Assembly (NCBI GenBank): GCA_902563305.1
Contig: CACEWP010000003.1
Location: forward strand, 35,951-99,950
DNA: 64,000 nucleotides
Direction: 5' to 3'
Origin: an uncultured Alphaproteobacteria bacterium
GTDB lineage: Bacteria > Pseudomonadota > Alphaproteobacteria > Methylaequorales > Methylaequoraceae
Shown here: one piece after another, positions 4,029 to 58,707 of the stretch
How the letters are laid out: every line of letters begins with the position of its first letter
Position numbering within the stretch: position 1 is the first letter of the stretch
Notes under the pieces: generated by a model
What the model was told of the DNA's origin: nothing
The model's database searches: none
The model's input: only the letters and a program-made list of their open reading frames with translations
Translations under genes and position numbers: made by a program

Positions 4029-4063
4029 TTTGAATTATAGTCTCTTGCAATTTATTTACTAAT

Positions 4064-4588: not shown

Positions 4589-4594
4589 AGACCT

Positions 4595-6676: not shown

Positions 6677-6677
6677 A

Positions 6678-6965
6678 TCAAAGTCCGTATTTTGTCATAA
6701 TATATTGAAACGCTTCAATAATTATTATTAGTATTACAGGTGAAATATCAATTGCACCAAAATTTGGGATAATGTTTCTTATAACTTTAAGTAATGGTTC
6801 TATCAACCTAAATAAAAAATCCATAATAATTGAGATTATTCTATTATTAATATTCACAACATTGAAAGAAACTAGCATGCTAATTATTACGTAGAATATT
6901 ACAGAGTATTTATAAATCTGCAAAATTTGAAAAATAATGTATGCAAAAAAGTCAATAAAATACAT
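6678..6965 (-). CDS. yggT: YggT family membrane protein
   Basis: 95 aa. LIEPLLKVIRNIIPNFGAIDISPVILIIII matches the YggT (Ycf19) pattern. Confidence 0.8.
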   Translation of the reverse strand: MYFIDFFAYIIFQILQIYKYSVIFYVIISMLVSFNVVNINNRIISIIMDFLFRLIEPLLKVIRNIIPNFGAIDISPVILIIIIEAFQYIMTKYGL

Positions 6966-6967
6966 AA

Positions 6968-10028: not shown

Positions 10029-10097
10029 ATTTTTCTATTAAAAAACTTATAATATTAGTATAAGACTGAGAATATAATAATTAAATAATTAATTACA

Positions 10098-12387: not shown

Positions 12388-13014
12388 TTCAAATTTTTTT
12401 TTAATTTTTTTTATGTATTTTTCATCATCATACTTTAGGTTAAATAATTCATTTAGTTCTTTTTCAGCTTCATTATGTAGCAAATTATTTATTAAGATTT
12501 CTATTAAGATCTCTCTTGCCTTAAGGTTATTAGGTGAGATAGTTTTTAATTTATAAAGATAATCTTTAGCACTTTTTGTCTGATTAATGTTTTTCTTTAA
12601 AATTGCGTATTCAAGTAAAATATCTTCGTTTAGAGGAAAATTTTTCAATGCATTTTTATAATATTTATCGGCTTTCTGATAATAACCGCTAAATACACAA
12701 GTTCTTGCAAGAATTAACCATCCCTGAAGATCATTAGGGTTTTTTTTTAATTTTTCTTCAAGATATAGTACTAAAATTTCGGGACTTATTTCCTTAAACT
12801 TTTCTGGGTTACTAGATCCATCTTCTATGATTTGATTTACCTTATCCTTGAAAGAGTAGCTTTCAATATTTCCTTTTTTAAAATAAATAAGAGTTGTAGG
12901 AGTTACTATTATTAAAATCGTCAAGAAAAATCTTAAAGGTCTCTTTTTAAATTTATTTAGATATAAAGCACAGGTTATAATTATTATTGTAAAAAGTGTA
13001 AATACAATCACCAC
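12379..13014 (-). CDS. ccmI: Cytochrome c biogenesis protein CcmI/CycH (TM + TPR)
   Basis: 211 aa with an N-terminal TM segment then TPR-like repeats. It is the last gene of the ccm block, uses a GTG start and shares 1 nt with the ccmH stop. Confidence 0.6.
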   Translation of the reverse strand: MVIVFTLFTIIIITCALYLNKFKKRPLRFFLTILIIVTPTTLIYFKKGNIESYSFKDKVNQIIEDGSSNPEKFKEISPEILVLYLEEKLKKNPNDLQGWLILARTCVFSGYYQKADKYYKNALKNFPLNEDILLEYAILKKNINQTKSAKDYLYKLKTISPNNLKAREILIEILINNLLHNEAEKELNELFNLKYDDEKYIKKIKKKFELN

Positions 13015-13382
13015 TATCTTTTCCTAAAAAAGAAGAGACTAAGAAAGAAAAAAAATAATATTGGAAGCAACCATAACCCTAAAGTATCAAATCTTACTGG
13101 AGGCTTAAATAAGACAAAATCACCATATTTTGAATGAACAAAGTCAATTATTTGTTCTTTTGTTTCTCCTTCAGTAAGTTTTTTTCTAACTACTTTTCTT
13201 AGGTCTTTGGCAATATCAGCATTAGAATTTTGAATATCCTCGTTTTGGCAAACCAAACATCGTAATTCTTTACCAATCTCCCTAGCAATTTTTTCTAAAT
13301 TATAATCATCTAAAATTTCGTCCGGCTCGATTGCTTTTAAATCAGAGAAAATTAGATATGAAAATAATACAAGAAATTTCAT
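13014..13382 (-). CDS. ccmH: Cytochrome c-type biogenesis protein CcmH/CycL
   Basis: 122 aa with a signal peptide, the LRCLVCQNEDI (LRCxxCQ) motif and a C-terminal TM segment. Confidence 0.9.
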   Translation of the reverse strand: MKFLVLFSYLIFSDLKAIEPDEILDDYNLEKIAREIGKELRCLVCQNEDIQNSNADIAKDLRKVVRKKLTEGETKEQIIDFVHSKYGDFVLFKPPVRFDTLGLWLLPILFFFFLSLFFFRKR

Positions 13383-18453: not shown

Positions 18454-21051
18454 ATGAATCTAACAACTACAAATTTTACAGACAACCTTAAAATTGAAAA
18501 AGATGAGTATACCTTTATTAGCTTAAAGAAAGCAGAATCAAAATTTAAATTTGTTATAGATAAAATACCTTTTACTTACAGAATACTTTTAGAAAATTTA
18601 ATTAGAAAAAAAGGTAAAACCAATACAAGCATAAAGGACTTAGACAATCTTATAAATCAAAAAACTGGAGAGGAAATTCTTTTCTGTCCAAGTAGAGTTT
18701 TAATGCAAGATTATACCGGTGTTCCTGCTATAGCAGACTTAGCAGCCATGAGAGATAAATTTAAGAATGATGGGAATGATCCTGAGAAAATAAATCCTTT
18801 AGTTCCAGTGAGTCTAATTATTGATCATTCAATAAACGTAGATAGTTATTCTAAGAAAGATTCCTTAAGCATAAATGTAAAAAAAGAATATGAACGAAAT
18901 AGTGAGAGATATAAATTATTGAAATGGGCCCAAAGTTCCTTGAAAAATTTCCTTCTATTTCCTCCTGGTTCTGGTATTTGTCATCAAATTAACCTTGAGT
19001 TTTTAGCTCAGGTTGTTCAAACCGAAAATAATTTTTTATTTATGGACTCTGTTGTTGGAACTGATAGTCATACAACAATGGTCAATGCTTTATCTGTTCT
19101 CGGGTGGGGTGTTGGTGGAATTGAAGCCGAGGCTGTGATGTTGGGTCAGCCAATATCTATGCAAATTCCTGAGGTGGTGGGAGTTAGGTTGTCAGGAAAT
19201 TTGAAAGATGGTTTAACAGCTACAGACTTAGTTTTGAATATAACTGAAAAACTTAGAAATATGAATGTTGTAGGGAAGTTTGTTGAATTTTACGGACCAG
19301 GACTTGAGTTCTTAAATTTATCAGAACGATCAACAATTTCAAACATGGCACCAGAATACGGAGCAACTTGTGGAATATTTCCCGTGGACAAAGAAACACT
19401 TTCCTATTTAAAAATAACTGGAAGAAAATCTAAGCAAATTGATATTGTAGAAAAATATTCTAAAGAACAGTGTCTATGGCATTACGGTTCGGAGAAAATA
19501 AACTATAATCAAAATCTTGATATTGACTTAAGCTTGATAGAGCCATGTATATCAGGTCCTAAAAGGCCTCAAGATAGGATCAATCTTATTGATGTTCCAA
19601 AAAAGTTTAAAGATCATTTGAACGGCGAAGAAAAATCTTTTAAAAATGTAAAAAATAAACTCTCGCACGGTAAAGTGTGTATTGCTGCAATAACCAGCTG
19701 TACGAATACATCGAACCCTACGGTATTAATTATGGCTGGTTTGATAGCAAAAAAAGCAGTTGAGATTGGATTAACTATTCCATGGTGGGTTAAAACGTCA
19801 CTTGCACCCGGAAGTAAAGTTGTTAGCAAATATTTGGATGAATCAAATCTTTTGCAATATCTCGAAAAGCTAGGTTTTAATATTATTGGTTATGGTTGTA
19901 CTACTTGTATAGGTAATTCAGGACCATTAGATGATAAAGTGAATAACGAAATTATTCAGAATAATTTAAATGTTTGTAGTGTAATATCAGGGAATAGAAA
20001 TTTTGAGGGAAGAATTCACCCGCACATCAAATCAAATTTTTTAGCATCACCTCCTCTTGTTATAATCTATGCAATTGCGGGAAGAATAGATATTGATCTT
20101 TCCAAAGATCCTATAACTATTCACAAAGGTAAGGAAGTGTTTCTAAAAGATTTATGGCCACCTAAATCTGAAGTAGAAAATATAATAAAAAAATGTGTTA
20201 AAAGAGATTTTTACGAAAAAAATTACGCAACAATCTTTAAAGGTGACAGTGAGTGGGAGAAATTAAATATTAAAAAATCTCCAACTTACGACTGGTCATT
20301 AAATTCAACTTATATTAAGAAACCACCATTCTTGGATAATAAAAAAAATGACCTTTATCATGAAATTAAAGCTAGGCCATTAATCATTCTTGGAGATTCT
20401 GTTACTACAGACCATATATCACCTGCTGGAGTTATAAAAGAGGATAGTTCTGCTGGAAAATATTTAAAAGAGAGACAAGTTCATTTAGACGATTTTAATT
20501 CTTATGGAGCAAGACGAGGTAACCACGAGATAATGGTAAGAGGAACTTTTGCTAATATAAGAATTAAAAATAAAATGATTGAGCACGCAGGTGGATATAC
20601 AAAACACCATGAATCGGAGATTGTAGAGGAAATTTATAAAGTTGCGAACAAATACAGAAAAAAAAATATACCATTAGTTGTGCTTGCTGGTAAAGAATAT
20701 GGAACAGGCTCATCTAGAGATTGGGCAGCAAAAGGAACCAAACTTCTTGGAGTAAAAGCAGTAATTGCTGAGAGTTTTGAGAGAATTCATAGATCTAATC
20801 TTGTGGGAATGGGTGTGTTGCCACTTCAAATCAAAGATACAGATAAAATTAATTTTGGTGGACAAGAAATTTTTCATATTGGGAAACTTTCAGACTATTT
20901 GATTAAACCAAATATTAGAAAAAGAATAAAAGTTATAAAAAAAAATGGTGAACAATTTCTAATTAATGTGATTTCAAGAATTGATACCAAGAATGAGATA
21001 AAATATTTTGAAAGTGATGGAATCCTTCCATATGTATTGAGTAATATTTAA
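18454..21051 (+). CDS. acnA: Aconitate hydratase A
   Basis: 865 aa with GTDSHTTM, ITSCTNTSNP, GCTTCIGNSG and the swivel-domain GSSRDWAAKG. Confidence 0.97.
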   Translation: MNLTTTNFTDNLKIEKDEYTFISLKKAESKFKFVIDKIPFTYRILLENLIRKKGKTNTSIKDLDNLINQKTGEEILFCPSRVLMQDYTGVPAIADLAAMRDKFKNDGNDPEKINPLVPVSLIIDHSINVDSYSKKDSLSINVKKEYERNSERYKLLKWAQSSLKNFLLFPPGSGICHQINLEFLAQVVQTENNFLFMDSVVGTDSHTTMVNALSVLGWGVGGIEAEAVMLGQPISMQIPEVVGVRLSGNLKDGLTATDLVLNITEKLRNMNVVGKFVEFYGPGLEFLNLSERSTISNMAPEYGATCGIFPVDKETLSYLKITGRKSKQIDIVEKYSKEQCLWHYGSEKINYNQNLDIDLSLIEPCISGPKRPQDRINLIDVPKKFKDHLNGEEKSFKNVKNKLSHGKVCIAAITSCTNTSNPTVLIMAGLIAKKAVEIGLTIPWWVKTSLAPGSKVVSKYLDESNLLQYLEKLGFNIIGYGCTTCIGNSGPLDDKVNNEIIQNNLNVCSVISGNRNFEGRIHPHIKSNFLASPPLVIIYAIAGRIDIDLSKDPITIHKGKEVFLKDLWPPKSEVENIIKKCVKRDFYEKNYATIFKGDSEWEKLNIKKSPTYDWSLNSTYIKKPPFLDNKKNDLYHEIKARPLIILGDSVTTDHISPAGVIKEDSSAGKYLKERQVHLDDFNSYGARRGNHEIMVRGTFANIRIKNKMIEHAGGYTKHHESEIVEEIYKVANKYRKKNIPLVVLAGKEYGTGSSRDWAAKGTKLLGVKAVIAESFERIHRSNLVGMGVLPLQIKDTDKINFGGQEIFHIGKLSDYLIKPNIRKRIKVIKKNGEQFLINVISRIDTKNEIKYFESDGILPYVLSNI

Positions 21052-26975: not shown

Positions 26976-27051
26976 GGTCTTATAGTTAAATTGGATATAA
27001 CAAATCCCTCCTAAGGATTAATTTCTGGTTCGAATCCAGATAAGATCGCCA
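26976..27051 (+). tRNA. tRNA-Arg (anticodon CCT)
   Basis: Hand-folded cloverleaf. The acceptor is GGTCTTA/TAAGATC and the D arm is GTTA-AATTGGATA-TAAC. The anticodon arm is AATCC-CTCCTAA-GGATT and the T arm is TCTGG-TTCGAAT-CCAGA. The discriminator is G and CCA is encoded; total 76 nt. Confidence 0.9.
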
Positions 27052-28397: not shown

Positions 28398-31300
28398 TTG
28401 ATTAATTTGATGAGAATGAATAAAAAAGTTAAATCAGGTCTATATGATCCTAAGAATGAAAAAGATTCGTGTGGAATTGGATTTGTTGCGAATATCTATG
28501 ACATACCATCCAGAACTATTGTGGAAAATGGGTTAAAAATACTTAGCAATTTAACTCACAGAGGAGCAGTTAGTGCAGATCCAAAAGCTGGAGACGGTGT
28601 TGGATTGTTGACTCAGATTCCACATCAATTTTTTCAAAAAGAATTATCAAAATACGATATCATTCTTCCCAGACCCGACGACTATGCTATAGGAATGCTC
28701 TTTTTACCAAGAGATGAAGAGGAAAAAGCGCATTGTATTAAGACAATAGATAAGCATTTAAATAATTTAAAACTTGAAAATCTGTATGTTAGAGATGTTC
28801 CTAGAAATGTTTCAGTTTTAGGTGACTCAATTAAAGGAAATGAACCATCTATTATACAAATATTTATAAAACAAAGATTTCAAGCAAGTAAAATTAATGA
28901 ATTTGAACAAAGACTTTTTATTGCTAGAAGAAGAATTGAAATAGAACTTAAATCTTTTGACTTTTATATTTCCTCTTTATCAAGCAAAACTTTAATTTAT
29001 AAAGGCATGATTATGTCTGATAGTCTCAAAGAATATTACGATGATCTTAAAGATGAAATGTTTATTTCGTCAATAGCTATTGTTCATCAAAGATTTTCAA
29101 CGAATACATTTCCCAGCTGGGAGTTAGCACAACCTTTCAGATTCTTGTGTCATAACGGCGAAATCAATACTTTAAGAGGAAATGCAAATTGGATGAACGC
29201 GAGAGCATGTGTATCAAATTCAGAGATTTTTCTAAAAGAATTCCAAAATCTTAATCCTTTGATTTTTGATGGCTTATCAGATTCAGCAGCTTTCGACAAT
29301 GCTTTAGAGTATTTGATGATGGGTGGATATGATATTGAGCATGCCATGATGCTTTTAATACCTGAGGCTTGGGAAAAAAATGAACAGAACCTTTTAATGA
29401 AAGATTATTACGAATATTATTCAAATTATATTGAACCATGGGACGGTCCAGCAGCAATGTGTTTTTCAAATGGTAAGAAGATTGGTGCAATTTTAGATAG
29501 GAATGGTTTAAGACCTTCAAGATATATTCAAACCGAAGACGGTATGATAATGCTTTCTTCTGAAATGGGAGTATTAGATATAGATCCAAAAAAAGTTGTA
29601 AAAAGATGGCGACTAGAACCAGGAAAGATATTTTTAATAGATCTTATGGAAAAAAGAGTTATCACAAATGATGAAATAAAACTCAAATTAGCAAAGAAAT
29701 TTGACTATAGAAAATCTTTAGACAGAAATCAGATTTTCTTGAATGAATTAAAAACCAAAAACAATGTTAAAGAAATTAATCAAGATGAGTTGGTTAAATT
29801 TCAAATTGCTTATGGTTATAATAAAGAGGACATAAATTTTTTTATTGAACCAATAGTCAAATTAGGTGTTGAGCCTATAGGATCGATGGGAACCGATACG
29901 CCAATCTCCCTCCTATCTGATCAATCAAAACTTTTATTTTCTTATTTTAAACAATGCTTTGCACAGGTTACGAACCCCCCAATTGATCCAATCAGAGAAG
30001 AGCTGGTGATGTCATTGGATATGACATTGGGAGAAAAACCCAATATCTTTGACACACCAGAGGAAAATATGAAATCCAGACTGGAAATCAGTCAGCCAAT
30101 TCTTACTAACAGTGAAACTCAAATAATTAAAGATCTTGAAAAGTTAACTAGAGGCAAAGTCAGAGCAGCAACAATAGATATTCTTTTCAAAAATTCTAAT
30201 AATTCAGATGAACTTAAAGACGGATTAGAAAGGATTTGCTTTGAGGCGAAATCTTTAATATCCGACGGGTTTAACGTATTAATTTTGTCAGATAGGAATA
30301 TTTCAAAAGTAAATGCTCCTATACCTTCGTTATTAGCAGTATCAGCTGTGCATCATTACTTGATTGAGCAGGGGTTGAGAATGAAAACAAGTTTAATTGT
30401 AGAAACTGGCGAGGCAAGAGAATTGCATCATTTTGCTGTTTTAGCTGGGTACGGAGCTGAAGCAATTAATCCTTACGTGGTATTCGAAACAATTTCAAGT
30501 CTAGTTCAAGAGAAAGATTATAAAATTTCAGAAAATAATTTTATCAAGGCTTCAGGTAAAGCCATCCAAAAAATTATGTCAAAAATGGGTATTTCAACTC
30601 TTAAGTCATATTGCGGTGCCCAGATATTTGATGCAATTGGAATATCTGAAGATGTGATAAATCAATATTTCCCTGGAACAGCTTCGCTTATTGGAGGATT
30701 AACTCTTAAACAAATTCAAGAAGAGACCATATCAAGATATTCAAAATGTTTTGTCTCTGAAGATAACAATCAATCACTCGATGAAGGTGGAGAATTTGCA
30801 TTCAGAATAAAAGGTGAAAAACATTCTTGGTCACCATCCAGCATAACAAATCTGCAAAAGGCAGTAAGAATTAATTCCAAAGAACACTTTAATAAGTTTT
30901 CAGAAAAAATTAATAATCATAATAGATCTATGTATACTATTAGAAGCCTTTTTGAATTCAATAAAACAAAAAAAATTCCTGTAGAAAAAGTTGAACCAGC
31001 TTCAGAGATTGTAAAAAGATTTTCAACTGGAGCAATGTCCTACGGCTCAATATCCAGAGAAGCACATACAACTCTTGCTCTTGCAATGAATAGAATAGGT
31101 GGTAAGTCAAATACTGGTGAAGGTGGAGAAGAGCCTGAGAGATTTATAAAATTAAAAAACGGTGATTCTATGAAAAGTGCTATAAAACAGGTCGCTTCAG
31201 GAAGATTTGGTGTAACAACTGAATATTTAATAAATGCTAAAGATATTCAAATAAAAATTAGTCAAGGAGCAAAACCTGGGGAAGGTGGACAGCTTCCTGG

Positions 31301-32975
31301 ACATAAAGTAGATGATAAAATTGCAAGTGTAAGACATTCAACACCTGGTGTAGGATTGATATCTCCGCCGCCTCATCATGATATTTACTCAATTGAAGAT
31401 CTTGCACAGTTAATATTCGATTTGAAGAATGTTAACCCAGATGCAAGAATAAGTGTGAAATTAGTATCAGAATTTGGTGTAGGAGTCGTAGCAGCAGGAG
31501 TAACCAAGTGTAAAGCAGATCATATAACTATAGCTGGATACGATGGAGGTACTGGAGCGTCCCCATTGACTTCAATTAAAAATGCAGGAACTCCATGGGA
31601 ACTTGGACTTGCAGAAACCCATCAAACTTTAGTTATGAACAAACTTAGAAGTAGAATATCATTACAAGTGGATGGAGGATTAAAAACTGGAAGAGATGTT
31701 ATAATTGGCGCTTTGTTGGGTGCAGATGAATTTGGCTTTTCTACTGCTCCATTAGTATCAGTTGGATGTATAATGATGAGAAAATGCCATCTTAATACTT
31801 GTCCAGTAGGAATTGCTACTCAAAATGAAATCTTGAGAAAAAAATTTAAGGGAACACCTGAGAACGTTATAAATTATTTCTTTATGGTTGCTGAAGAGGT
31901 AAGAGAAATTATGGCTCAATTAGGCATAAGAAAATTTCAGGAATTAATCGGAAAATCAGAACTATTAGAGAAAAATAAAGCAATATCGCATTGGAAAGCA
32001 AAGAATATAGATTTATCTAAAATACTATTCAAACCTAAAAATCAAAACCTAAAAGATGTTTTTAATTCCTCGTCTCAAGATCATGCATTGAGCTATGTCC
32101 TAGATAAAGAGGTTATAAAGAAAGTTTTACCTGTACTTGAGAGGAAAATTTCGACCATAGATATATTTAAAACTATCAAAAATACAGATAGGAGTTTTGG
32201 TGCAATGTTATCCGGAGATATTGCTCGAAGATTTGGTCATAAAGGTTTAAGGGAAGATTCAATAGTAATTAATCTTGAAGGAACTGCTGGCCAAAGTTTT
32301 GGTACTTTTCTGTCTGCTGGTATAACTTTATCTTTGTCTGGAGAGGCAAATGATTATGTTGGAAAAGGTTTATCAGGGGGAAAAATAATCATCAAACCAT
32401 TTAGGGATGCCAAATATAAATCAGACGAAAATATAATAGTTGGTAACACTGTCTTATATGGCGCTATCTCAGGACAATGTTTTTTCTCAGGAGTTGCTGG
32501 AGAAAGATTTGGGGTTAGAAACTCTGGAGCAATTGCTGTTGTTGAAGGTACAGGTGATCATTGTTGTGAATATATGACCGGTGGAGTTGTTATGGTTCTT
32601 GGTAAGACAGGAGTTAATTTTGGCGCTGGTATGAGCGGAGGAATATCATACGTCTATCAAAATAAAGATGAGTTTAAGAAAAAATGTAATTTATCTATGA
32701 TTAATATCTTGAGAGTAAAAAAAACCAAGCATATTTTTCCCGAAAAACTTTTTGATAAATATAATTATCTTTTTAACGATGAATTGCGAATTAAAGAATT
32801 GTTAAAAAGACATCTAAACTTTACTGGCTCACTAGTCGCAAAAAGAATTTTAGAAAATTTTGATGAAGAAATTAATAATTTTGTTAAGATTCTACCAATA
32901 GATTTTGAAAATGTTTTATCAAAGAGGATAGAGAAAGAAAAAAATTTAAAGGTTGTAAATTTATGGCAAAAGTAA
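28398..32975 (+). CDS. gltB: Glutamate synthase (NADPH) large subunit
   Basis: About 1520 aa. It has the Ntn-amidotransferase Cys in DSCGIGFVA, the FMN/Fe-S central domain and the GXGXG C-terminal domain. The likely ATG start is at 28410 or 28416 rather than TTG at 28398. Confidence 0.97.
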
Positions 32976-34411
32976 CTGGATTTCTTGAACATGATAGAGC
33001 TGATAATGAATCATTAGCACCCAAGAAAAGACTTAAAAATTTTGAAGAATTCGTTTTGCCTTTTCCAGATAAAACGTTAAATGAGCAAGCTTCGAGATGT
33101 ATGGACTGTGGAATTCCTTATTGTCATGATTCATGTCCAATAAATAATATTATACCAGAGTGGAATAATTTAGTTTATGAAAGAGACTGGAAAGTTGCTC
33201 TGGACGTTCTTCATTCCACTAATAACTTTCCTGAATTTACTAGTAGGATTTGCCCTGCTCCATGCGAAGCGGCTTGTACTTTAAATATTGATGATAGTCC
33301 GGTAACAATTAAAAGCATCGAAAGATCTATTATAGATAAAGCATACAAAAAGGGTTGGTTGTTACCACAAATTAATAATAAAAAAACTAATAAAAGAGTA
33401 GTTGTTATTGGTTCAGGCCCTGCTGGTTTGGCATGTTCGCAGCAGTTAGCCAGAGCCGGACACGATGTTACACTGTACGAAAAAAATGATCGAATTGGTG
33501 GATTACTAAGGTATGGAATACCAAATTTTAAGATGGAAAAACATCTAATTGACAAGAGAATTGAACAAATGAGTAAAGAAGGTGTTAGATTTAAATGTAA
33601 TACAAAAATAGGTGAAGATGTATCATTTAAAGAAATATTAAATGATTTCGATGCAGTTGTTTTAGCATGTGGTTCTGAACAACCAAGAGATTTAGATATT
33701 CCAGGAAGAGATCTAAAAGGTATTCACTTTGCTATGGATTTCTTAACACTGCAGAATAAGATATGTGAAGGGGATAATATTAAATTAGAAAACGAGTTTA
33801 ATGCAAGAGATAAAAACGTGGTTGTAATTGGAGGTGGAGACACAGGGTCTGACTGTATTGGAACTTCAAATCGTCAAGGTGCAAGTTCGATTACACAACT
33901 AGAGATTTTAGACAAACCGCCAGTAAAAGAGGATAAAATGTTAACATGGCCTAACTGGCCGCTCAAATTAAGAACTTCATCTTCACATGAGGAAGGAGCA
34001 AATAGGAATTGGAGCGTATCAACAAAACTTTTTAAAGGCGATGGAAATAAAGTAAAAAGCTTAACATTAAAAAAAATTGAATGGGAAAAAAATGCTGAAG
34101 GTAAAATGCAAATTAAAGATAGTTCTGATGAAAACTCAGAGATGACAATTAAAGCAGATCTAGTTTTATTAGCTATGGGCTTTGTTCACCCAGTAAAAGA
34201 TAGATTGATACAAGATTCTGGTATTGAGCTAGATTCGAGAGGTAACGTCAAAGCTAATGATATAGATTATAAAACTAATATTAAGAAAGTCTTTGTCTCT
34301 GGTGACATGAGAAGAGGTCAATCACTAGTTGTTTGGGCAATAAGAGAGGGCAGACAGGTAGCCCACAATGTTGATAAATTTTTGATGGGAAGTACAAAAC
34401 TTCCTTTGTAA
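32963..34411 (+). CDS. gltD: Glutamate synthase small subunit
   Basis: 482 aa with [39 protein letters not shown] and [11 protein letters not shown]. It overlaps gltB by 13 nt. Confidence 0.96.
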
Positions 34412-34485: not shown

Positions 34486-35220
34486 ATGAGTGAAAGAATC
34501 TCATTTGTTTTAACAAGTTGCGGACGAACTGATCTGCTCGATAGAACTCTTGAAAGCTTCTTCAATTTTAATAACTTCCCAATAGAAGAATTTTATCTCA
34601 CAGAGGATTCTGTGGATGACAAGACATATTCTCATATTAAAAAAAAATGGGAAAAAAAAATACATCTGCTCTTTAATGATAAAAAAAAGGGTCAGATACA
34701 ATCTATTGTTGACGCATATAAATTAATAAAGACACCTTATATCTTCCATTGTGAGGATGATTGGATTTACACGAGAAAAAATTTTATTCAAGATTCATTC
34801 AAGATTCTTGATTATGATTCAAAAATAATACAGGTATGGTTGGAAAGTAAAAAAAGCGCCAGTAGATTAGATATTTTCAATTATGGTCCATTGATAGAAC
34901 ATAAAGGAATTGGATTTAGAAAGGTTTTCTGTAAAGAAGGATGGGAATGGGGTTATTTTTCGTTTAGACCAGGTGTGAAAAGAATGAAAGATTATAATTT
35001 AATAGGCGGTTATGAAAATTATAAAAATGAGTTGGATATTGGTGTATCATATAAAAAATTGGGTTTTTACTCTGTGATCATAGAAGAACCTGCTGTTAAG
35101 GATATAGGTTTGGATCAAACAATATTTGATCCAACTAGAAAGTGGCCAAAAAGAAGAAAGACTAATGCACCAAGAGGTCTAAAAAGACTTTGGAAGCATC
35201 TAAAAAATCTTAAATTTTAA
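34486..35220 (+). CDS. Putative GT-A fold glycosyltransferase
   Basis: 244 aa. ISFVLTSCGRTDLLDRTLESF and HCEDDW (a DxD-like motif) are typical of family-2-like glycosyltransferases. This is the first gene after gltD and I take it as the start of the accessory island. Confidence 0.6.
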   Translation: MSERISFVLTSCGRTDLLDRTLESFFNFNNFPIEEFYLTEDSVDDKTYSHIKKKWEKKIHLLFNDKKKGQIQSIVDAYKLIKTPYIFHCEDDWIYTRKNFIQDSFKILDYDSKIIQVWLESKKSASRLDIFNYGPLIEHKGIGFRKVFCKEGWEWGYFSFRPGVKRMKDYNLIGGYENYKNELDIGVSYKKLGFYSVIIEEPAVKDIGLDQTIFDPTRKWPKRRKTNAPRGLKRLWKHLKNLKF

Positions 35221-37258: not shown

Positions 37259-37837
37259 GTGAAAAATAAAATTGATATCTTTTATGATCATTTACTTCTT
37301 ATTTGTAGAAAGAAAAAAGCGAAAAAGTTTTTATATTTAATTTCTTTTCTTGAATCAATAATTTTTCCACTCCCAACAGACCCTTTTTTAATTCCGTTTA
37401 TCATCGCAGAAAAGAGATTTTTCTATCTTGCTGGAATTGTCACAATTTTTTCTGTTCTAGGTGGGGTGTTTGCATATGTAATAGGAAGCTTTGCTTGGTT
37501 TAAAATTCAACCATTCTTTGAGGTTCACTATACTGATATCAATTTACTTATTAGCGAATTTGAGAATAATTATAATGATCTTGGAATTTTATTGATTTTG
37601 ATGGGAGGATTTTCTCCATTTCCTTACAAAATAACATGCTTGGCGTCAGGTATTTTGGGGATAAATATTTTACTTTTTATTTTACTATCTATTTTGTCTA
37701 GAGGGCTTAGATTTTTAATTGTTTCATTTCTAATTTTTAAATATGGAGAGTTGTCTCTTAATATTATAAAAAAAAATATTCTGCTATTAAGCTTTATTTT
37801 GTTAGTACTTTCAGTTTTTGTCTATTTTATTTTTTAG
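37259..37837 (+). CDS. YqaA/DedA-like membrane protein
   Basis: 192 aa with a GTG start. LESIIFPLPTDPFLIPFII is typical of YqaA-type DedA proteins. Confidence 0.65.
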   Translation: MKNKIDIFYDHLLLICRKKKAKKFLYLISFLESIIFPLPTDPFLIPFIIAEKRFFYLAGIVTIFSVLGGVFAYVIGSFAWFKIQPFFEVHYTDINLLISEFENNYNDLGILLILMGGFSPFPYKITCLASGILGINILLFILLSILSRGLRFLIVSFLIFKYGELSLNIIKKNILLLSFILLVLSVFVYFIF

Positions 37838-47149: not shown

Positions 47150-49639
47150 ATGAATTTTCCAAAATATTTTCAGTTTTTTATAAAGGAACTTAATAAAAAC
47201 AGATCAAAGATTACAAAAGTTTTTTTTACAATATTTGTAAGTCTGTTAATTTTTTCTTCCGTTGTAATTTTAGAAAACAATATTGAAGGTGAAATTAAAA
47301 ATAATTCAAGAGTTCTCCTTGGCGGTGATTTAGAACTATCAACAAAAAATGAAGCTTTAGATTTGAATTTTTTAAATGAATTAAAAGAAAATTTCTTAAT
47401 TACAGAAGTTATTGAATTTTCTTCTATCATAAGAGCAGAAAATGAGAAAAACAAAGCCACTAGAATTAAAGTAATTGATAATTTCTATCCACTTGTCGGT
47501 AGAGCGATTGTAGAGCCTCCTGGTTCATTAAAAACACTAAAAACTAAACCCAATACTATTTTGATTGATAAAACGAGTCAAAAAAATCTTGGTTTAAAAC
47601 TCGGTGAAATAATAAAATTACAAAACACCCCATTTGAAGTCATTGGGGTTATAAAGAGTTTACCAGATATTGGCGGGTTCTTCGTTTTTGGAGATCAAGC
47701 TTTAATACACAAATCTAGCTTCAGGGATTTGAAAATTAATAATTTGGGTAGTTTTGTAGGGTTTAAATACAAACTTGTAAAAGCGGATAATAATAAAAAA
47801 TTACCTAGTAGTATAAGTAAATATAAAAATCTTGAAATTAAATACCCTGAAGATGTGAGTCAGAATTTAAAAAAAGCCATTGAAAATTTCATTTATTTTC
47901 TATCTATTATTTCAGCATCAGCTATTATTATTTCCGGTATAGGATTAAAAAATGCATTATTTTCTTTTTTAAGTAACAATCAATTAAAGATTGCAATTTT
48001 AAAATCACTAGGATTAAGCTCGCAAAATATTAAAGCATTATACTACTCACAAACATTATTGGTTCTAATATTTTGTTCACTTTGTGCGTATATATCAAGT
48101 CTGGTTTTAATTTCTTTTATAGATCAAAGTCTTTTAAATTTTCTGAAAATTGAACTAAAGGTCAAATTTAGAATATATGAATACTTAATAATTCAGTTTT
48201 TTAGCATTTTAATCTTCTTTATGTTTTCTAAACCAGTGTTAGATGTTATTGATCAAATTAAAGTAGCGGATTTATTTAGAAATTTTGATACACACTTGAA
48301 TTTAAATTATAGTCGAAGGTCGATTCTAGAAATTAGTACGTTAGTTTTAATTTTTATTTTCTCTTTTTGTATTTTAAATGTTAAACCTCAGCAAACAGCA
48401 ATATTTTTTCTCTTTTTTATAGTTATTAGTTTTTTTTACTTTTTTTTGTCTAAGTTCTACATTGTAATTTTAAATAAAATTAAAAATGTTAAAAATATAT
48501 TTTTTAAAATTGGAATCAAGAATTTAAGGGTATACAGCAGTCTTAATTCAACAATAATAATGACTATGGGAGTGGGGATGACAGTATTGTTTTTTCTCGG
48601 GATTTTGTCCTCAAATATTAACAAGGAGCTAAATAGCTCAATTCCAGAAAACGCACCTCATTATTTTTTTCTAGGAATTCAAAAAAATGAGATAAATTTA
48701 TTCTCACAACAAATTCGTCAAATCGATTTTCAAGCTAAGCAGATCATCGTACCCATGATATCAGCAAGAATAGAGACAATTAATAATAAAAAACCGAAGG
48801 AGATAATTGATGAAAAAAATAAAAGCTTTTGGTTTATTAACGGTGAAAGAAGAATATCTTGGTCCAAAGAGCCACCTAGTAATAATCCACTTGTAAAAGG
48901 GAATTGGTGGAATTCAGATCAAAGTAACACCTTGGAACTTTCATTAGATCACAAAGTTGCAAATGATCTGAAACTAGAAATAGGTGATTCTATTACATTT
49001 AATATTTATGGTAATTCAGTCTCAGGAATTATTAAGAATTTCAGAAAAGTTGATTATAGAGATCTAAACATTAATTTTGCGATATTATTTAATCCTGAGT
49101 ATGCGTCAAAAATTCCTCACGAATTTATGTCTACTGTGAAATTTAAAAATGATGATGCAGTGAATCTAGGTAATTTATTAAAAAAATTACCAGCAATTAA
49201 TTACATTAAATTATCAGATTACATAAAAAAAACAAAAAATTTTTTAAATAAATTATTAATCGTGAGTATTTTAATATCAGGCTTAGTTATCTTAATTGGT
49301 TTTATTGTAATATCTAATGCTGTTAGCGTAATAGGAAATCTCAAAGTTTATCAAAATCTAGTTTTAAGAATTTTAGGATTTGAGAAATCAAATATTATGA
49401 AGTTAATAATTTTTGAATCCTTGATACTGTTTCTCCCTGTTATCATATCATCGTTATTAATTTCTATAACATTTTCGTATTTTTTTATATCAAGTTTTTT
49501 TAATATTGATTGGTATTTTAATTTTTCAGTACCTTTGATTATTTCAATTTTTTTCTTATTTGTATTAGTCGTAACATTATTACTTTCGAATAGAAAGTAT
49601 ATTAATTTTAATGCTTACTCTTTATTAAAGAATGGATAA
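47150..49639 (+). CDS. ybbP: FtsX-family ABC transporter permease (YbbP-like, two FtsX modules)
   Basis: 829 aa with two blocks of 4 TM helices separated by large soluble loops. It lies immediately after the ybbA-like gene. Confidence 0.85.
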   Translation: MNFPKYFQFFIKELNKNRSKITKVFFTIFVSLLIFSSVVILENNIEGEIKNNSRVLLGGDLELSTKNEALDLNFLNELKENFLITEVIEFSSIIRAENEKNKATRIKVIDNFYPLVGRAIVEPPGSLKTLKTKPNTILIDKTSQKNLGLKLGEIIKLQNTPFEVIGVIKSLPDIGGFFVFGDQALIHKSSFRDLKINNLGSFVGFKYKLVKADNNKKLPSSISKYKNLEIKYPEDVSQNLKKAIENFIYFLSIISASAIIISGIGLKNALFSFLSNNQLKIAILKSLGLSSQNIKALYYSQTLLVLIFCSLCAYISSLVLISFIDQSLLNFLKIELKVKFRIYEYLIIQFFSILIFFMFSKPVLDVIDQIKVADLFRNFDTHLNLNYSRRSILEISTLVLIFIFSFCILNVKPQQTAIFFLFFIVISFFYFFLSKFYIVILNKIKNVKNIFFKIGIKNLRVYSSLNSTIIMTMGVGMTVLFFLGILSSNINKELNSSIPENAPHYFFLGIQKNEINLFSQQIRQIDFQAKQIIVPMISARIETINNKKPKEIIDEKNKSFWFINGERRISWSKEPPSNNPLVKGNWWNSDQSNTLELSLDHKVANDLKLEIGDSITFNIYGNSVSGIIKNFRKVDYRDLNINFAILFNPEYASKIPHEFMSTVKFKNDDAVNLGNLLKKLPAINYIKLSDYIKKTKNFLNKLLIVSILISGLVILIGFIVISNAVSVIGNLKVYQNLVLRILGFEKSNIMKLIIFESLILFLPVIISSLLISITFSYFFISSFFNIDWYFNFSVPLIISIFFLFVLVVTLLLSNRKYINFNAYSLLKNG

Positions 49640-54861: not shown

Positions 54862-54929
54862 TGATACCCCTAGTCCAACTTGAACGGACAAGAAACGAAG
54901 TTCAATTGATTTTGAATTAGTTGCGTTGC
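54862..54929 (-). pseudogene. Decayed copy of the 3' ~68 nt of tRNA-Leu(CAA)
   Basis: The plus-strand text tgatacccctagtccaacttgaacggacaagaaacgaagttcaattgattttgaattagttgcgttg aligns to 58621-58688 of the intact tRNA-Leu at roughly 83% identity in the same orientation. The T arm still folds, but the anticodon stem is broken and the 5' acceptor and D arm are absent. Confidence 0.7.
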
Positions 54930-55031
54930 TGTATAAGTCATTGATTTAAAAACAGATAAATTTTACTACCACACTTTTTTTTCAAAATCTGTGATGATAC
55001 CCTTATACACGTTAAAGCATTACTTAAAATA

Positions 55032-55108
55032 GTGGTTGTTGCTCAGTTGGTTTAAACGCAGGTTTGTGGTGCCGGATGTTGGGAGTTCAAATCCACTCAG
55101 CCAACCCA
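55032..55108 (+). pseudogene. tRNA-His(GTG)-like sequence, probably degenerate
   Basis: It has the D-loop GCTCAGTTGG, the anticodon loop TTGTGGT, the T-loop GTTCAAATC and a 3' CCA. My hand fold leaves mismatches in the acceptor (G1-A72), D stem (2), anticodon stem (1) and T stem (2). Confidence 0.35.
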
Positions 55109-55130
55109 TTCAACTAAATTGATAAAATTT

Positions 55131-55940
55131 TTACTGACAATTTTCTATATCTACTTTTGTGTCTAAAAATTCATCTCCATTATAATTATTTTTAACACCT
55201 TTTATTGTAGAAGCATCTTCGAAATCAAAGCCAGAACTAATTCTTATGTATTTATCATCAATACATTTTTTATGAGATGGATCAAATGCTACCCAACCTA
55301 GATTATTTATAAAAATTTCAACCCAAGCATGAGTGGTATTTTCACCTGAAACTGTATCTTCTAACAAAAAACCATTAATATATCTGGCTGGGAGTTGATT
55401 AAACCTTGCTGCGCTAATAAGAATATGAGCAAAATCCTGACAGACACCTTTTTTCTGCATCAAAGCATCCTTTGAACTAGTATATGTTGTTGTTGACCCA
55501 CTAACGTATTTAATAGAATTTGAAACTATTAAGTTAAGCGTATGGGCAAATTCTATTTGGTTTTTATTATTTTTTTTTGCATTTTCTGAAATTTTCTCAA
55601 TATTTTTACATGGTTTTGTTAAATCTGTTTCTCTAAGAAAACAAAGCGGATTAACCTTTTCTCTCAAACCTTTTACTACACCAGATAAATCTTTTGTTTT
55701 TAATATTCCTTTAGAAGTAATTTTAAGTTGACCATGAAAATTATTAATAAAAATATTTTGTATTCTATGTCCTAAGGCATCAGTGTGTGATTCTAATATT
55801 TTTCCATTATTTGAAAATGTTTCCCATTTTATAATTTCCTGATTTTCACAGACCGAGGGATATAGTTTTAAACATTGAATAAGCCTTGGCACTGTTAAAT
55901 TATATTTATAAGTTGTAGAGTGAGTAATTTTAATTTTCAT
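55131..55940 (-). CDS. Transglutaminase-like cysteine protease/ligase (Bact_transglu_N + transglutaminase core)
   Basis: 269 aa with MKIKITHSTTYKYNLTV...LKLYP, the catalytic-Cys context KGVCQDFAH, and HAWVE...FDPS. Confidence 0.9.
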   Translation of the reverse strand: MKIKITHSTTYKYNLTVPRLIQCLKLYPSVCENQEIIKWETFSNNGKILESHTDALGHRIQNIFINNFHGQLKITSKGILKTKDLSGVVKGLREKVNPLCFLRETDLTKPCKNIEKISENAKKNNKNQIEFAHTLNLIVSNSIKYVSGSTTTYTSSKDALMQKKGVCQDFAHILISAARFNQLPARYINGFLLEDTVSGENTTHAWVEIFINNLGWVAFDPSHKKCIDDKYIRISSGFDFEDASTIKGVKNNYNGDEFLDTKVDIENCQ

Positions 55941-56896
55941 GTTTCTGATCCAAAAAAGTATTTTTGCTCAAATTTTTTATAAATAAAATTTATTTCTTCA
56001 ATAAAGGATTTTAAAAATTCATGCAAACCAATTTCTGTAATTTTATTAGCATTTAGATTTTTTATTCTTTTATACATAAGTCGCATTTTTTTATTTGAAG
56101 AAGAGGTTTGTTTATAAAATTTTGATAACCTTCCTAAATGATGATTTATTTTTTCTATTGAAAAAATTAAAGATCTTGGGCAAGTCATATTCATAATTAA
56201 AAAATCTATAATTTTAGTGTATGTAATTTCTTGTCCTCCATAAGCCCATTTAAATGCTCTGAATGATGAAATTGATCTTAACATTAAACTCCATTGAAAA
56301 TTGTCAATATCACTTCCGACATAGTTTATACTTGGAAGTAAAATAAAATATTTAACGTTAATAATTCTTGCAGTAAAATCTGCTCTTTCAAAATAAGTTC
56401 CTAATATTAAAAAATCATAACCATCATTAATTAGCTGGGTGTTAAGTATTGTGCCTCTAATTAAATTTACTTGTTTTTTTATCCATTCAATAATTTCAGG
56501 CAATTCTTTTAAGATATTCTTTGTATCTTTTAAATTCTTATCAAGTTCATGATAAGAGGAATTTATTGCATTCCAAACCTCTAAAGTAACAGCAGTTCTG
56601 ACCATTCTTATATTTTCCCTTGCTGTCTTTATACAGTTTTTAACTGAAGAAAAGTTTTCTGGGTCAAAAAGAAGAAAGAAAATAATTTTCTCTTTAGAAA
56701 TTGTTTTATATTTTTTTAGGTATTCATTTTTAATTCCCGAAGTTTCTAGAATTGATTCCCATTCATTTGTATAACCTCTTTCCGTGTTAGGGATCAAAGA
56801 AATTCTGTATCCAACCTCTAAAAGTCTAGCTAAAGAATCGGCTCGTTCTATATATCTTGCTGACCAAAATAAATTTTCTGCAGTTCTACTTAACAT
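55937..56896 (-). CDS. Alpha-E domain protein (DUF403)
   Basis: 319 aa. The N-terminal MLSRTAENLFWSARYIERADSLARLLEV is the hallmark alpha-E opening. It overlaps the downstream gene by 4 nt. Confidence 0.9.
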   Translation of the reverse strand: MLSRTAENLFWSARYIERADSLARLLEVGYRISLIPNTERGYTNEWESILETSGIKNEYLKKYKTISKEKIIFFLLFDPENFSSVKNCIKTARENIRMVRTAVTLEVWNAINSSYHELDKNLKDTKNILKELPEIIEWIKKQVNLIRGTILNTQLINDGYDFLILGTYFERADFTARIINVKYFILLPSINYVGSDIDNFQWSLMLRSISSFRAFKWAYGGQEITYTKIIDFLIMNMTCPRSLIFSIEKINHHLGRLSKFYKQTSSSNKKMRLMYKRIKNLNANKITEIGLHEFLKSFIEEINFIYKKFEQKYFFGSET

Positions 56897-56901
56897 ATTA
56901 A

Positions 56902-58308
56902 CTATTCATTGAGTATCCATGTATCCTTAACTCCTCCACCTTGAGACGAATTAACCACCAACGAACCCTGATTTAAAGCAACCCTTGTTAATCCACCATC
57001 AACTAATTTTGTTTTATTGGCTCCAACCAAACAAAATGGTCTAAGATCAACGTGTCTTGGAGATAATTTTTTTTTATCAAAGATTGGTACTGAGGACAAT
57101 TCAAGTATTGGTTGTGCTATATAGTTTGATGGATTTAAAAGGATTTTTTTTCGAAAAATTTCTATTTCTTTTTTTGATGATTTACTTCCAATTAATAAAC
57201 CATAACCTCCAGAGCCATGGACTTCTTTAACAACTAATTTATTTAGATTTTTAAGAACATATTTTTTTGCATCTTCTTCACAGCATCGCCAGGTTTTTAC
57301 ATTTTCTAATATTGGCTCTTCTCCTAGGTAAAATTTAATTATTTCAGGTATGTAAGAATAAATAGCTTTATCGTCAGCGATACCTGAACCTGGAGCGGAA
57401 CAAATATTTACATTACCAGACTTATATGAATCAAATAAGCCAGGAATTCCAATAAGTGAGGAACTATCAAAAGTAATTGGATCAATAAATTTATCATCAA
57501 TTCTTCTATAAATTATATCAACTTTTTCTGGTCCCCTAGTGGTTTTCATATAGGTTATAGATTCGTCAACGAAAAGATCATTTCCTTGGACCAATTCAAC
57601 CCCCATAAGGTCAGCAAGAAAGCTATGCTCATAATATGCGCTATTTAAAGAGCCAGGGGTAAGTATTACAACTTTTGGTTCTTTATTGCATTTTTTTGGG
57701 GCTAGACTTTTTAGAACTTCTAACAAATAATTTGGATAGTTTTCTACAGTTTCGATTTTTAATTTTTCAAATAATTCGGGAAACATTCTCATCATTATTT
57801 CTCTATTTTCAATCATATATGAAACTCCAGACGGAGTTCGACAATTATCCTCTAGAACTTTAAAAGTTTTTTCGTTAATTCGCACTATATCAGATCCAAT
57901 AATTGGACTGTAAATTCTTTTAGGAACCTTAAAACCTATCATTTTTATTTCATATGCAGGGTTTTTATAAATTAAATTTTCAGGTATTAATTTTGCTTTT
58001 ATAATTTCACCAGAATTATAGATATCATTCAGAAAGGCATTAACGGCTAATGCTCTTTGGATAACTCCTTTTTTAATTTTTTTCCATTCTGTTGAAGAGA
58101 TTATTCTTGGAAACATATCAAATGGAATTAGACGCTCAGTAGAATCAAAGTTATTATATACAGAAAATGTAATACCTATCTTTTTAAAAAGATTTTCAGC
58201 TTCATTTTTTTTTTTAACAATTACATTTTCAGGCAAAGATTTAGCCCAATCATATATTTGATTATAAAATTTTCTTACTTTAGAGTTTTTGTAAACTTCG
58301 TTATACAT
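56902..58308 (-). CDS. Circularly permuted type-2 ATP-grasp protein (DUF404/DUF407)
   Basis: 468 aa. This is the conserved first gene of the ATP-grasp / alpha-E / transglutaminase triad described by comparative genomics (Iyer et al. 2009). Size and gene context match. Confidence 0.85.
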   Translation of the reverse strand: MYNEVYKNSKVRKFYNQIYDWAKSLPENVIVKKKNEAENLFKKIGITFSVYNNFDSTERLIPFDMFPRIISSTEWKKIKKGVIQRALAVNAFLNDIYNSGEIIKAKLIPENLIYKNPAYEIKMIGFKVPKRIYSPIIGSDIVRINEKTFKVLEDNCRTPSGVSYMIENREIMMRMFPELFEKLKIETVENYPNYLLEVLKSLAPKKCNKEPKVVILTPGSLNSAYYEHSFLADLMGVELVQGNDLFVDESITYMKTTRGPEKVDIIYRRIDDKFIDPITFDSSSLIGIPGLFDSYKSGNVNICSAPGSGIADDKAIYSYIPEIIKFYLGEEPILENVKTWRCCEEDAKKYVLKNLNKLVVKEVHGSGGYGLLIGSKSSKKEIEIFRKKILLNPSNYIAQPILELSSVPIFDKKKLSPRHVDLRPFCLVGANKTKLVDGGLTRVALNQGSLVVNSSQGGGVKDTWILNE

Positions 58309-58349
58309 CTTTCTTCACTTTTAATCGGAGTGGAAAGAGACAAACGGAT

Positions 58350-58395
58350 GCGTTCCTTCGGTTTCAAACCTACTTCCGACCACAATGGTTGAACG
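58350..58395 (-). promoter_or_regulatory. Candidate glutamine riboswitch aptamer (glnA RNA motif-like)
   Basis: The minus strand reads CGUUC-AACCAUUGUGGU-CGGAAGUAGG-UUUGAAA-CCGAAGGAACGC. It has P1 CGUUC/GAACG, two mini-hairpins, and the conserved CGGAAGUAGG and CCGAAGGAACGC blocks as I recall them for Rfam glnA RNA. It sits 41 nt upstream of the ATG at 58308. Confidence 0.7.
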
Positions 58396-58620
58396 TTTAT
58401 TAAAGATTATAACTAATCAATTTCTAAAGCAAGAGTTATTTGGTTTGTGGTAACGAAGGACGGGTGACAAATTCTCTCAATTAATAATAACAATAAATCT
58501 TTTTTACTGAGTTAATTTGTAAAAAACAAGGTTCACAATGTAAATGTCTATAACAATAATAAATCTTATTGAATATAATTTTTAATAAATTCTTAAACTT
58601 CTACTCGCATTGATTTTAGA

Positions 58621-58707
58621 TGGTACCCCTAGTCCGACTCGAACGGACATGAACCGAAGTTCAACGGATTTTGAATCCGTCGCGTCTACCAATTCCGCCA
58701 TAGGGGC
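58621..58707 (-). tRNA. tRNA-Leu (anticodon CAA)
   Basis: The reverse complement is GCCCCTATGGCGGAATTGGTAGACGCGACGGATTCAAAATCCGTTGAACTTCGGTTCATGTCCGTTCGAGTCGGACTAGGGGTACCA. It folds with the anticodon arm ACGGA-TTCAAAA-TCCGT and a long variable arm GAAC-TTCG-GTTC. The T arm is GTCCG-TTCGAGT-CGGAC and CCA is encoded. Confidence 0.95.

Follow-up and report, generated by a model that had tools for sequence, protein, structure and literature searches.

A glutamine-riboswitch operon between two sets of tRNA-derived repeats in a SAR11 genome: probable nested site-specific integrations at tRNA-Leu(CAA) and at a tRNA-His copy

SAR11 is the most abundant marine bacterium, and the movement of its flexible genes is poorly understood because recognisable mobile elements are almost absent. 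The question addressed here is how a riboswitch-led three-gene operon came to lie between an intact transfer RNA (tRNA) gene, tRNA-Leu(CAA), and a decayed copy of the 3' part of the same gene, with no integrase between them. The locus is contained in a 64,000-nucleotide (nt) stretch of contig CACEWP010000003.1 (assembly GCA_902563305.1, positions 35,951 to 99,950), from an uncultured alphaproteobacterium, referred to below as the window. The preliminary description of this DNA had treated the operon as the cargo of a tRNA-Leu integration event. The comparison with other SAR11 genomes makes it probable that there were two nested integrations, both now fossil: an outer one in tRNA-Leu and an inner one in a copy of tRNA-His.

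The outer pair of repeats consists of the following features.

58621 to 58707, minus strand: intact tRNA-Leu(CAA) (ARAGORN; Rfam tRNA, 29.1 bits; 100% identical in 27 of 29 other SAR11 loci)
54862 to 54926, minus strand: 3' fragment of tRNA-Leu(CAA), positions 23-87, core of the attR attachment (att) site (alignment, blastn, fragment profile)

The ungapped, same-orientation alignment of 54862-54929 to the 3' end of tRNA-Leu showed 55 of 68 identical positions (55/65, or 84.6%, over tRNA positions 23-87), bearing out the decayed copy first described. The next-best 68-mer match within the window reached 32/68 and the best of 50 shuffled controls 35/68. The relic was recovered by blastn with E values of 2e-11 to 2e-15, and a profile made solely from the fragments of other genomes detected it with 58 bits (E 4e-17). 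An intact tRNA thus stands at one end and, on its 3' side, a same-orientation repeat of its 3' part stands at the other. The contents in between, namely a riboswitch, three genes and a tRNA-His-like relic, were also found as described, and no integrase was detected between or near the repeats.

The repeat had been regarded as unusually long. Integrases acting at the anticodon loop of an 87-nt class II tRNA predict just such a length, which is therefore ordinary: counted from anticodon stem to CCA end, this long-variable-arm tRNA-Leu gives a block of 60-65 nt, and the 77-nt tRNA-His one of 47 nt.

Similarity to other loci was not confined to the tRNA. Two stretches of non-tRNA sequence, one beside each copy, were matched to the arms of att sites elsewhere (loci and contigs used for comparison carry L numbers).

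54927 to 55031, minus strand: P arm of the tRNA-Leu-targeting element, 105 nt (82.6% identity to the L110 attP arm across 86 nt, E 1e-19)
58482 to 58620, minus strand: P' arm remnant after the tRNA, 139 nt, with no integrase behind it (matches L095 and L114/L115)

The P arm also matched the arms of L098, L107, L112, L101 and L105. The P' arm was 82.7% identical over its full length to L095 3067-3216 (E 2e-30) and 68% identical over 82 nt to the P' arm upstream of the integrase in L114/L115 (E 3e-7); its first 30 nt match the motif that in other arrays follows tRNA-Leu or a fragment of it, and that recurs in attP, the element's form of the site.

These results bear on the simplest explanation, a local partial duplication of tRNA-Leu, or a chance similarity, with no mobile element involved. 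The window does lack an integrase or any other mobility gene, as this explanation would predict. Chance is ruled out by the shuffled controls, however, the sequence beside the relic matches the attP arm of an integrase-bearing element, and the relic carries element-specific bases at tRNA positions 27 and 29; we consider this explanation extremely improbable. The footprint of site-specific integration at the 3' side of tRNA-Leu(CAA), proposed from the window alone, is thereby upheld by the arms.

The origin of the relic is more composite than had been assumed. The differences from the tRNA had been described as mostly G/C to A/T, and 10 of the 11 substitutions within the first 65 nt are of this kind, in a window of 28% G+C. 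The changes at positions 27 and 29, however, are present in every fragment of the same class in other genomes, and are therefore attP-derived rather than the product of decay. The sequence ACGCAACTG occurs in all A- and B-type fragments, including the window relic, where the tRNA has ACGCGACGG. Since the fragments share ACGCAACTG, their 5' end is derived from the element and not from displaced host tRNA; element-derived bases through position 29 in turn place the strand exchange 3' of that position, at or after the anticodon loop. The relic is, as judged from these comparisons, a hybrid attR, the element arm being fused to the displaced tRNA end, and 58621-58707 is the attL side, with a host 5' part and a rebuilt 3' part. 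The earlier picture of a rebuilt tRNA and a displaced 3' part is accordingly retained for the tRNA and modified for the relic.

The element itself was found as metagenome contigs. The fragments of other genomes resemble one another beyond the tRNA, with at least three families of upstream arm and a common motif after the tRNA or fragment. In L088 the open reading frame (ORF) directly after tRNA-Leu encodes the N-terminal SAM-like domain of an integrase, joined to an unrelated C-terminus, and the database relatives of this ORF were short fragments from error-rich nanopore assemblies. Two nanopore contigs carried the full order of P arm, tRNA-Leu core, P' arm and integrase: L112, of 8547 nt, and L110, a 27-kb contig of which the 16.3 kb analysed shows tandem units with a period of 8263 nt. 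Both also encode a resolvase and a clamp-loader-like ATPase. The same arrangement was found in Illumina assemblies: in L113 an uninterrupted 396-amino-acid (aa) integrase directly follows an A-type attP (3788-3962), and in L114 a 393-aa integrase, 90% identical to that of L113, follows a B-type attP (400-640) and precedes four small ORFs and then an ATPase. The attP form, with both arms around one core, thus exists in L113, L114, L112 and L110.

The integrase matched PHROG family phrog_1, annotated 'integrase' (E 2e-23), and Pfam Phage_int_SAM_5; no sequence match was found in the PDB. Its family comprises more than 500 marine proteins, several of which have a precomputed PF00589 assignment. 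Three paralogues of about 49% identity (P0022, P0034 and P0058) lie in long chromosomal contigs shortly after hemY-type genes, each accompanied, at a distance of a few genes, by a resolvase, so that the pairing of the 8.3-kb element recurs.

Each att arm contains a twofold direct repeat, GTTTGATACTAA in the A-type and ACATTGACAC in the B-type (L112 5960-6010 and 6190-6215; L114 415-440 and 590-615). These are candidate arm-type binding sites of the integrase. One degenerate copy, GTGTGGTAGTAAA, is kept in the P arm of the window. The tRNA segment of the L113 attP (3880-3935; compare L091, oriented, 6183-6247) shows paired changes in the variable arm and T stem, TCTC/GAGA for GAAC/GTTC and CAG/CTG for CCG/CGG, which keep the helices. 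Such paired changes are consistent with selection to rebuild a working tRNA upon integration.

An intact integrase beside an att site was found in L113, L114, L110 and L112, and a truncated one in L088, L085, L101 and L081. In L101 the order is tRNA-Leu, P' arm, the first 28 codons of the integrase, an unrelated 410-aa gene, 200 nt of P arm and a tRNA-Leu fragment. This intermediate, together with the integrase starts still present in L085 and L081, documents in relatives of the window that the backbone was lost while both arms were kept. The truncated integrases directly follow tRNA-Leu, which shows that the backbone decayed in place.

The tRNA-Leu(CAA) gene was found to be a recurrent site. 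An exact search with its 5' 44 nt gave 29 loci from SAR11 single-cell and metagenome-assembled genomes (MAGs). In 13 of these, tRNA positions 23-87 or 28-87 (60-65 nt) are repeated directly one to five times downstream of the gene; of the approximately 16 loci whose downstream sequence extends to 2 kb or more, 11 have such copies. The maximum of five was found in L095, with identities of 96.9, 96.9, 92.3, 81.5 and 83.1% outward from the gene. Since copies farther from the tRNA tend to be less identical, and so older, tandem accretion is indicated. The frame of the locus is kept, with COQ7, DsbB and FkbM (in most loci), then tRNA-Leu, the array and an FtsX/MacB-like permease. This permease, which is context and not part of the element, closes the variable region and is found downstream of the tRNA-Leu arrays in L087, L105 and L092; in L092 its gene lies about 325 nt after tRNA-Leu, at a nearly empty site.

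47150 to 49639, plus strand: FtsX/MacB-like permease (71% amino-acid identity to L007 17548-20037)

The number of array units per locus ranges from zero to five, and tRNA-Leu(CAA) is followed by different cargo in different strains. The cargo includes an MFS transporter, methyltransferases, amine oxidase-like proteins, cytosine and adenine DNA methylases, GDSL lipases and an acetyltransferase. Shared position in many strains, differing cassettes and recurring partial-tRNA repeats, all seen at this locus, are the features of an additive flexible island. When 20 candidate cargo ORFs were inspected for an integrase, only the truncated L088 remnant was found, and no full-length integrase was found in species-representative genomes, which again yielded that remnant only.

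Having established the outer pair, we turn to what lies within it.

58347 to 58397, minus strand: glutamine riboswitch aptamer, leader of the operon (Rfam RF01739, 58.3 bits against a gathering threshold of 35)
56902 to 58308, minus strand: circularly permuted ATP-grasp protein, 468 aa (Pfam CP_ATPgrasp_2, E 3e-153)
55937 to 56896, minus strand: Alpha-E domain protein, 319 aa (Pfam Alpha-E, E 9e-80)
55131 to 55940, minus strand: transglutaminase-like protein, 269 aa (Pfam Transglut_core, E 5e-22, and Bact_transglu_N)
55032 to 55108, plus strand: full-length tRNA-His(GTG) pseudogene, proximal att site of the operon cassette (84% identical to the intact tRNA-His of relatives)
about 58436 to 58481, plus strand: decayed 3' fragment of tRNA-His, approximately positions 31-77, distal att scar of the operon cassette (syntenic alignment, profile)

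The pairing of riboswitch and operon suggests glutamine-controlled expression of a little-understood system of the amidoligase type. The aptamer is also found upstream of a homologous operon in a distant Rhizobiales-type MAG (L022 9894-9959), with 81.8% identity over 66 nt.

The sequence at 55032-55108 is a pseudogene and fails as a functional tRNA: it was not called by ARAGORN, and its Rfam score of 15.3 bits lies below the gathering threshold of 29. Reading of its alignment to intact tRNA-His showed mismatches in the acceptor, D, anticodon and T stems and the loss of G-1 and C72, both of which are now A. Counted from the same alignment, 42 of the 3' 47 nt are identical and 23 of the 5' 30 nt. 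The milder decay of the 3' part fits its later renewal by an incoming cassette, on numbers too small for a test. The second copy, at 58436-58481, was seen by syntenic alignment with clear fragments in L002, L004, L003 and L007, and an independent profile match to a decayed tRNA-His fragment was obtained at 58443-58479 (12.8 bits, E 0.006). The window thus holds a pseudo-tRNA-His on one side of the operon and a decayed tRNA-His fragment on the other, and for this reason we read the operon as a cassette with its own tRNA-His-derived direct repeats, nested in the tRNA-Leu pair.

The same operon was found in 11 SAR11-type genomes (L001-L011) at 80-92% nucleotide identity. In 10 of 13 carrier genomes (L001-L006, L008-L011) the operon lies within an array at a real tRNA-His gene. 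It abuts intact tRNA-His(GTG), 3' end to 3' end, in L001, L002 and L004; in L003, L005, L006, L009 and L010, 1-6 kb of other genes separate the two. Only in three genomes, those of the window, L007 (which overlaps L094) and L103, does it lie inside a tRNA-Leu array. Where assemblies permit the comparison, tRNA-Leu is located elsewhere in the genomes that carry the operon at tRNA-His.

When intact tRNA-His was used in a sensitive search, its 3' part, taken from anticodon loop to CCA end, was recovered many times as 46-47-nt copies, all of which share the tRNA's orientation and separate cassettes from one another. In L002 and L004 a single 47-nt fragment lies exactly upstream of the riboswitch promoter, so that the operon is bracketed exactly by intact tRNA-His and this fragment. 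Arrays of fragments were found in L003 (four, plus the gene), L011 (three, together with the first part of the gene, where the locus is cut off), L007 and L010. The operon thus forms a further cassette, mobile in its own right and directed at a copy of tRNA-His, and is not the cargo of the tRNA-Leu element.

The link between operon and tRNA-His may extend beyond SAR11. In TMED62, an unrelated alphaproteobacterial MAG (L013), the operon (10001-13128; 72% amino-acid identity, orientation opposite to that in SAR11) lies directly 3' of tRNA-His (9654-9730), and in L022 tRNA-His (18921-18997) lies about 6 kb downstream of the operon.

The age of the operon was compared with that of its surroundings by third-codon-position identity between the window and L007, L103 or L001. 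The three operon genes gave values of 0.75-0.89 and the flanking core genes (FkbM, COQ7 and three more) 0.40-0.59; even the most conserved core gene, with 81-89% amino-acid identity, reached 0.49-0.59. Because the identity of the operon is far above that of its core flanks, the operon must have moved horizontally. The relic and its arm are 73.5% identical between the window and L007, about as core sequence is, and the outer scar is for this reason old and probably inherited. The operon would then have arrived, or been exchanged, after the outer scar formed.

These observations decide the case of a single tRNA-Leu(CAA) element with the operon as cargo and the tRNA-His piece as an incidental passenger, the arrangement first put forward for this locus. 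Its geometry fits, since relic and tRNA point the same way, with the relic on the 3' side and the operon between. It leaves without a place the operon's own tRNA-His repeats, its seat at a real tRNA-His away from tRNA-Leu in L001-L006 and L008-L011, the unit without operon in L095 and L105 described next, and an operon much younger than its surroundings. We regard it as very unlikely; the tRNA-His relic is not incidental to the locus, being the attachment site of the inner cassette.

Without the operon cassette, the outer unit of the window is a miniature cassette of about 320 nt, composed of the P' arm (139 nt), the tRNA-His copy (77 nt) and the P arm (105 nt). In L007, L010, L095, L105 and L090 the pseudo-tRNA-His is likewise joined to a P arm and a tRNA-Leu fragment, with a conserved flank 5' of the pseudo-tRNA. 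The position of this junction varies among arrays; in L010 it is found inside the tRNA-His array. The cargo at the pseudo-tRNA-His differs: the operon in the window; the operon with a binding protein, a hydrolase and MarR in L007; an ORF of 204 aa in L095 and one of 168 aa in L105; and two cytosine methylases in L090. This arrangement suggests to us that incoming cassettes used the tRNA-His copy as a secondary landing site in the tRNA-Leu array.

The history that we propose on this basis is as follows. A tyrosine-integrase element, of the family of approximately 8.3-kb units with integrase, resolvase and clamp-loader-like ATPase, would have entered tRNA-Leu(CAA) by strand exchange at or just 3' of the anticodon loop. 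The attP copy of tRNA positions ~23-87 would have rebuilt the tRNA gene at 58621-58707, pushing the old 3' part of the tRNA, with the P arm of the element, to 54862-55031. Integrase and backbone would then have been lost, presumably by deletion, leaving the mini-cassette. Later, a tRNA-His-targeting cassette carrying the glutamine-riboswitch operon would have entered the tRNA-His copy at its anticodon loop, through the action of a putative enzyme, and left the pseudo-tRNA-His at 55032-55108 and the 46-nt 3' fragment at about 58436-58481. This cassette moves among SAR11 lineages, with a genuine tRNA-His as its usual seat, and all non-functional tRNA copies would since have decayed under the AT-biased mutation of the genome.

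Several findings weigh against two nested site-specific integrations. No tRNA-His-specific integrase was found in any locus examined, and the lack of an integrase in the window means that no activity can be claimed for this copy. Pfam did not detect the catalytic domain of the tRNA-Leu integrase. The nanopore tandem contigs are error-rich, and in them a chromosomal array is indistinguishable from a circular or packaged concatemer. Several array fragments have no recognisable P' arm after them, so that not every unit fits a serial model. A search of a viral contig collection with the exact att patterns and the integrase gave no match, nor was either att site found in deposited phages. Finally, the relic core has three changes in the anticodon stem-loop, and the site is probably dead.

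Some of these findings favour another mechanism, in which cassettes are spread and replaced by homologous recombination, with the tRNA, the 47-65-nt repeats and the arms as anchors, and site-specific integration is only the distant origin of the repeats. The missing tRNA-His integrase would agree with this, as would the near absence of integrases from SAR11 genomes (PMC11796062) and the order of cassettes, which is shuffled and sometimes inverted between genomes. The high identity of the operon between genomes (approximately 91%) ends at the tRNA-His-derived repeats, a boundary that either mechanism would give. Recombination between anchors accounts less well for fragment boundaries that, across dozens of copies, fall sharply at the anticodon stem-loop, for the existence of an integrase-bearing attP form of the tRNA-Leu system, and for the same mini-cassette at differing array positions across genomes. 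It appears to us unlikely as the main mechanism, while being a serious competitor, and nested site-specific integration is preferred.

A broader model is offered tentatively, and may well prove wrong. SAR11 would maintain an integron-like economy, in which integrase-less cassettes at two tRNA genes, with conserved attP arms, are moved in trans by the integrases of rare small elements, perhaps phage satellites; the mini-element of about 320 nt would plant a tRNA-His landing site in the tRNA-Leu array and thereby allow nesting. If so, recombination between the two tRNA loci would be possible and may explain rearrangements between genomes.

Pelagiphages were considered as a source of the repeats. 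Their published integration sites are tRNA-Cys, tRNA-Arg and tRNA-Leu genes other than the present one, and their cores measure 11-46 bp; no mention is made of tRNA-His, and tRNA-Leu(TAG) and tRNA-Leu(TAA) are given as tRNA genes encoded by the phages themselves (10.1101/410191). A pelagiphage attP was rejected as the source, since blastn of the relic region gave no match in the phage collection. When intact tRNA-Leu and tRNA-His were compared with phages, only phage tRNA genes and unrelated matches were obtained, with no Pelagibacter phage among the matches listed.

Williams is said to have distinguished, in 2002, sublocation classes that include integrative elements targeting the anticodon loop of tRNA genes. 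The tRNA-Leu system likewise has an integrase gene beside attP and direct repeats in the arms that resemble arm-type sites; it differs in that integrase and backbone are gone from the window, where the crossover is placed by sequence comparison only. The approximately 8.3-kb unit, in tandem on a 27-kb nanopore contig and known here from contig sequence alone, also resembles the VEIMEs, integrative mobile elements that are encapsidated in virions. These are integrase-bearing marine phage satellites of under 5 to 16.8 kb that are integrated in Pelagibacter genomes, packaged in virions and recognised in nanopore data as concatemers joined head to tail (Eppley et al. 2022, PMC9618062). The likeness to VEIME concatemers could here be an assembly effect or a chromosomal tandem array, and no capsid, packaging or interference genes were recognised on the element contigs, on which the clamp-loader-like ATPase and the resolvase were seen.

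Tycheposon islands, too, hold remnants and partial tRNAs. Like the loci described here, they are tRNA-anchored islands in a streamlined marine bacterium, Prochlorococcus, with cargo elements that carry tyrosine recombinases (Hackl et al. 2023, in the summary given by PMC10872708). The host differs, and so probably does the integrase lineage. Integron cassette arrays likewise consist of tandem promoter-poor or single-operon cassettes that end in a recombination site and mostly lack a recombinase. They have attC hairpins, IntI and attI, whereas the SAR11 sites are tRNA 3' halves, with a phage-type integrase and no IntI/attI platform; in the window no integrase ORF was detected, and the locus is not an integron.

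Recurring tRNA-end repeats define additive islands in Methylophilaceae (PMC10872708). In SAR11, partial repeats of neighbouring tRNAs have been noted in four gMED genomospecies islands and read as cassette insertions, in islands without canonical mobile elements for which just one integrase was reported (Molina-Pardines et al. 2025, PMC11796062). That study deals with the same organism group and partly with the same AG- single-cell genomes; in its accessible part the repeats receive one sentence, in which no tRNA is identified and no reference is made to attP arms, a donor element or nesting. Repeats of partial tRNAs had thus already been published for SAR11 islands, and this locus is a well-resolved further example. 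As far as checked, these papers do not contain the link of cassettes to a specific attP and integrase, the mini-cassette with a tRNA-His copy, or the nesting of two tRNA systems. The locus connects integrase-less cassettes with a concrete donor element and with that element's attP and integrase, it shows a nitrogen-linked operon travelling among divergent lineages as a discrete unit, and it makes the mechanism testable by ordinary means.

The region to the left of the relic had been included in the proposed hotspot with tandem accretion. The hotspot is confirmed by the arrays; its extension to the glycan genes is not. No tRNA-Leu fragment was found anywhere left of 54862 in the window, and no further tRNA-Leu or tRNA-Arg fragments bounding the glycan region were found with nhmmer profiles (E up to 100) or blastn-short. 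As no tRNA-Leu fragment bounds it, accretion of the glycan region via this att site is not shown. The segment 49640-54861, from the permease to the relic, encodes an AT3-SGNH acyltransferase, a methyltransferase and two unknowns; it is variable and not bounded by an att site. Between 34.4 and 47 kb, glycan genes (GDP-mannose pathway, RgpF, methyltransferases) are mixed with conserved MlaC and ABC transporter genes. In a distant SAR11 MAG (L104, oriented, 1414-2960), gltD lies 18 nt from tRNA-Leu(CAA) and is followed by gltB, whereas gltBD of the window (28398-34411) lies 24 kb from tRNA-Leu, the stretch from 34.4 to 58.6 kb being extra relative to L104. This extra 24 kb keeps alive the possibility of tRNA-Leu-linked glycan accretion.

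Besides tRNA-Leu(CAA), ARAGORN called one other tRNA gene in the window, tRNA-Arg(CCT) at 26976-27051, just upstream of gltB. The search for partial repeats of this gene in the window gave nothing convincing (best E 0.028), and it is therefore not an accretion site here.

Two cargoes of tRNA-Leu arrays consist of paired methylases, two C-5 cytosine methylases in L090 (oriented, 3781-7530) and two D12-class adenine methylases in L083 (oriented, 3633-5521), which suggests restriction-modification or other defence cassettes at the tRNA-Leu hotspot. In the nanopore-derived MAG L092 (oriented, 325-411), the match to tRNA-Leu(CAA) covers only positions 1-79, with other sequence in place of the 3' acceptor strand; either the assembly is wrong here, or a nearly empty site carries a disrupted tRNA.

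A glycosyltransferase and a VTT-domain gene lie 5' of tRNA-Leu in L007 (6132-7532), and their homologues in the window (34486-35220 and 37259-37837) lie beside gltD. Compared with homologues of window 31.5-42.9 kb, the operon of L011 has the inverted orientation. Such rearrangements seem to link the tRNA-Leu and tRNA-His loci.

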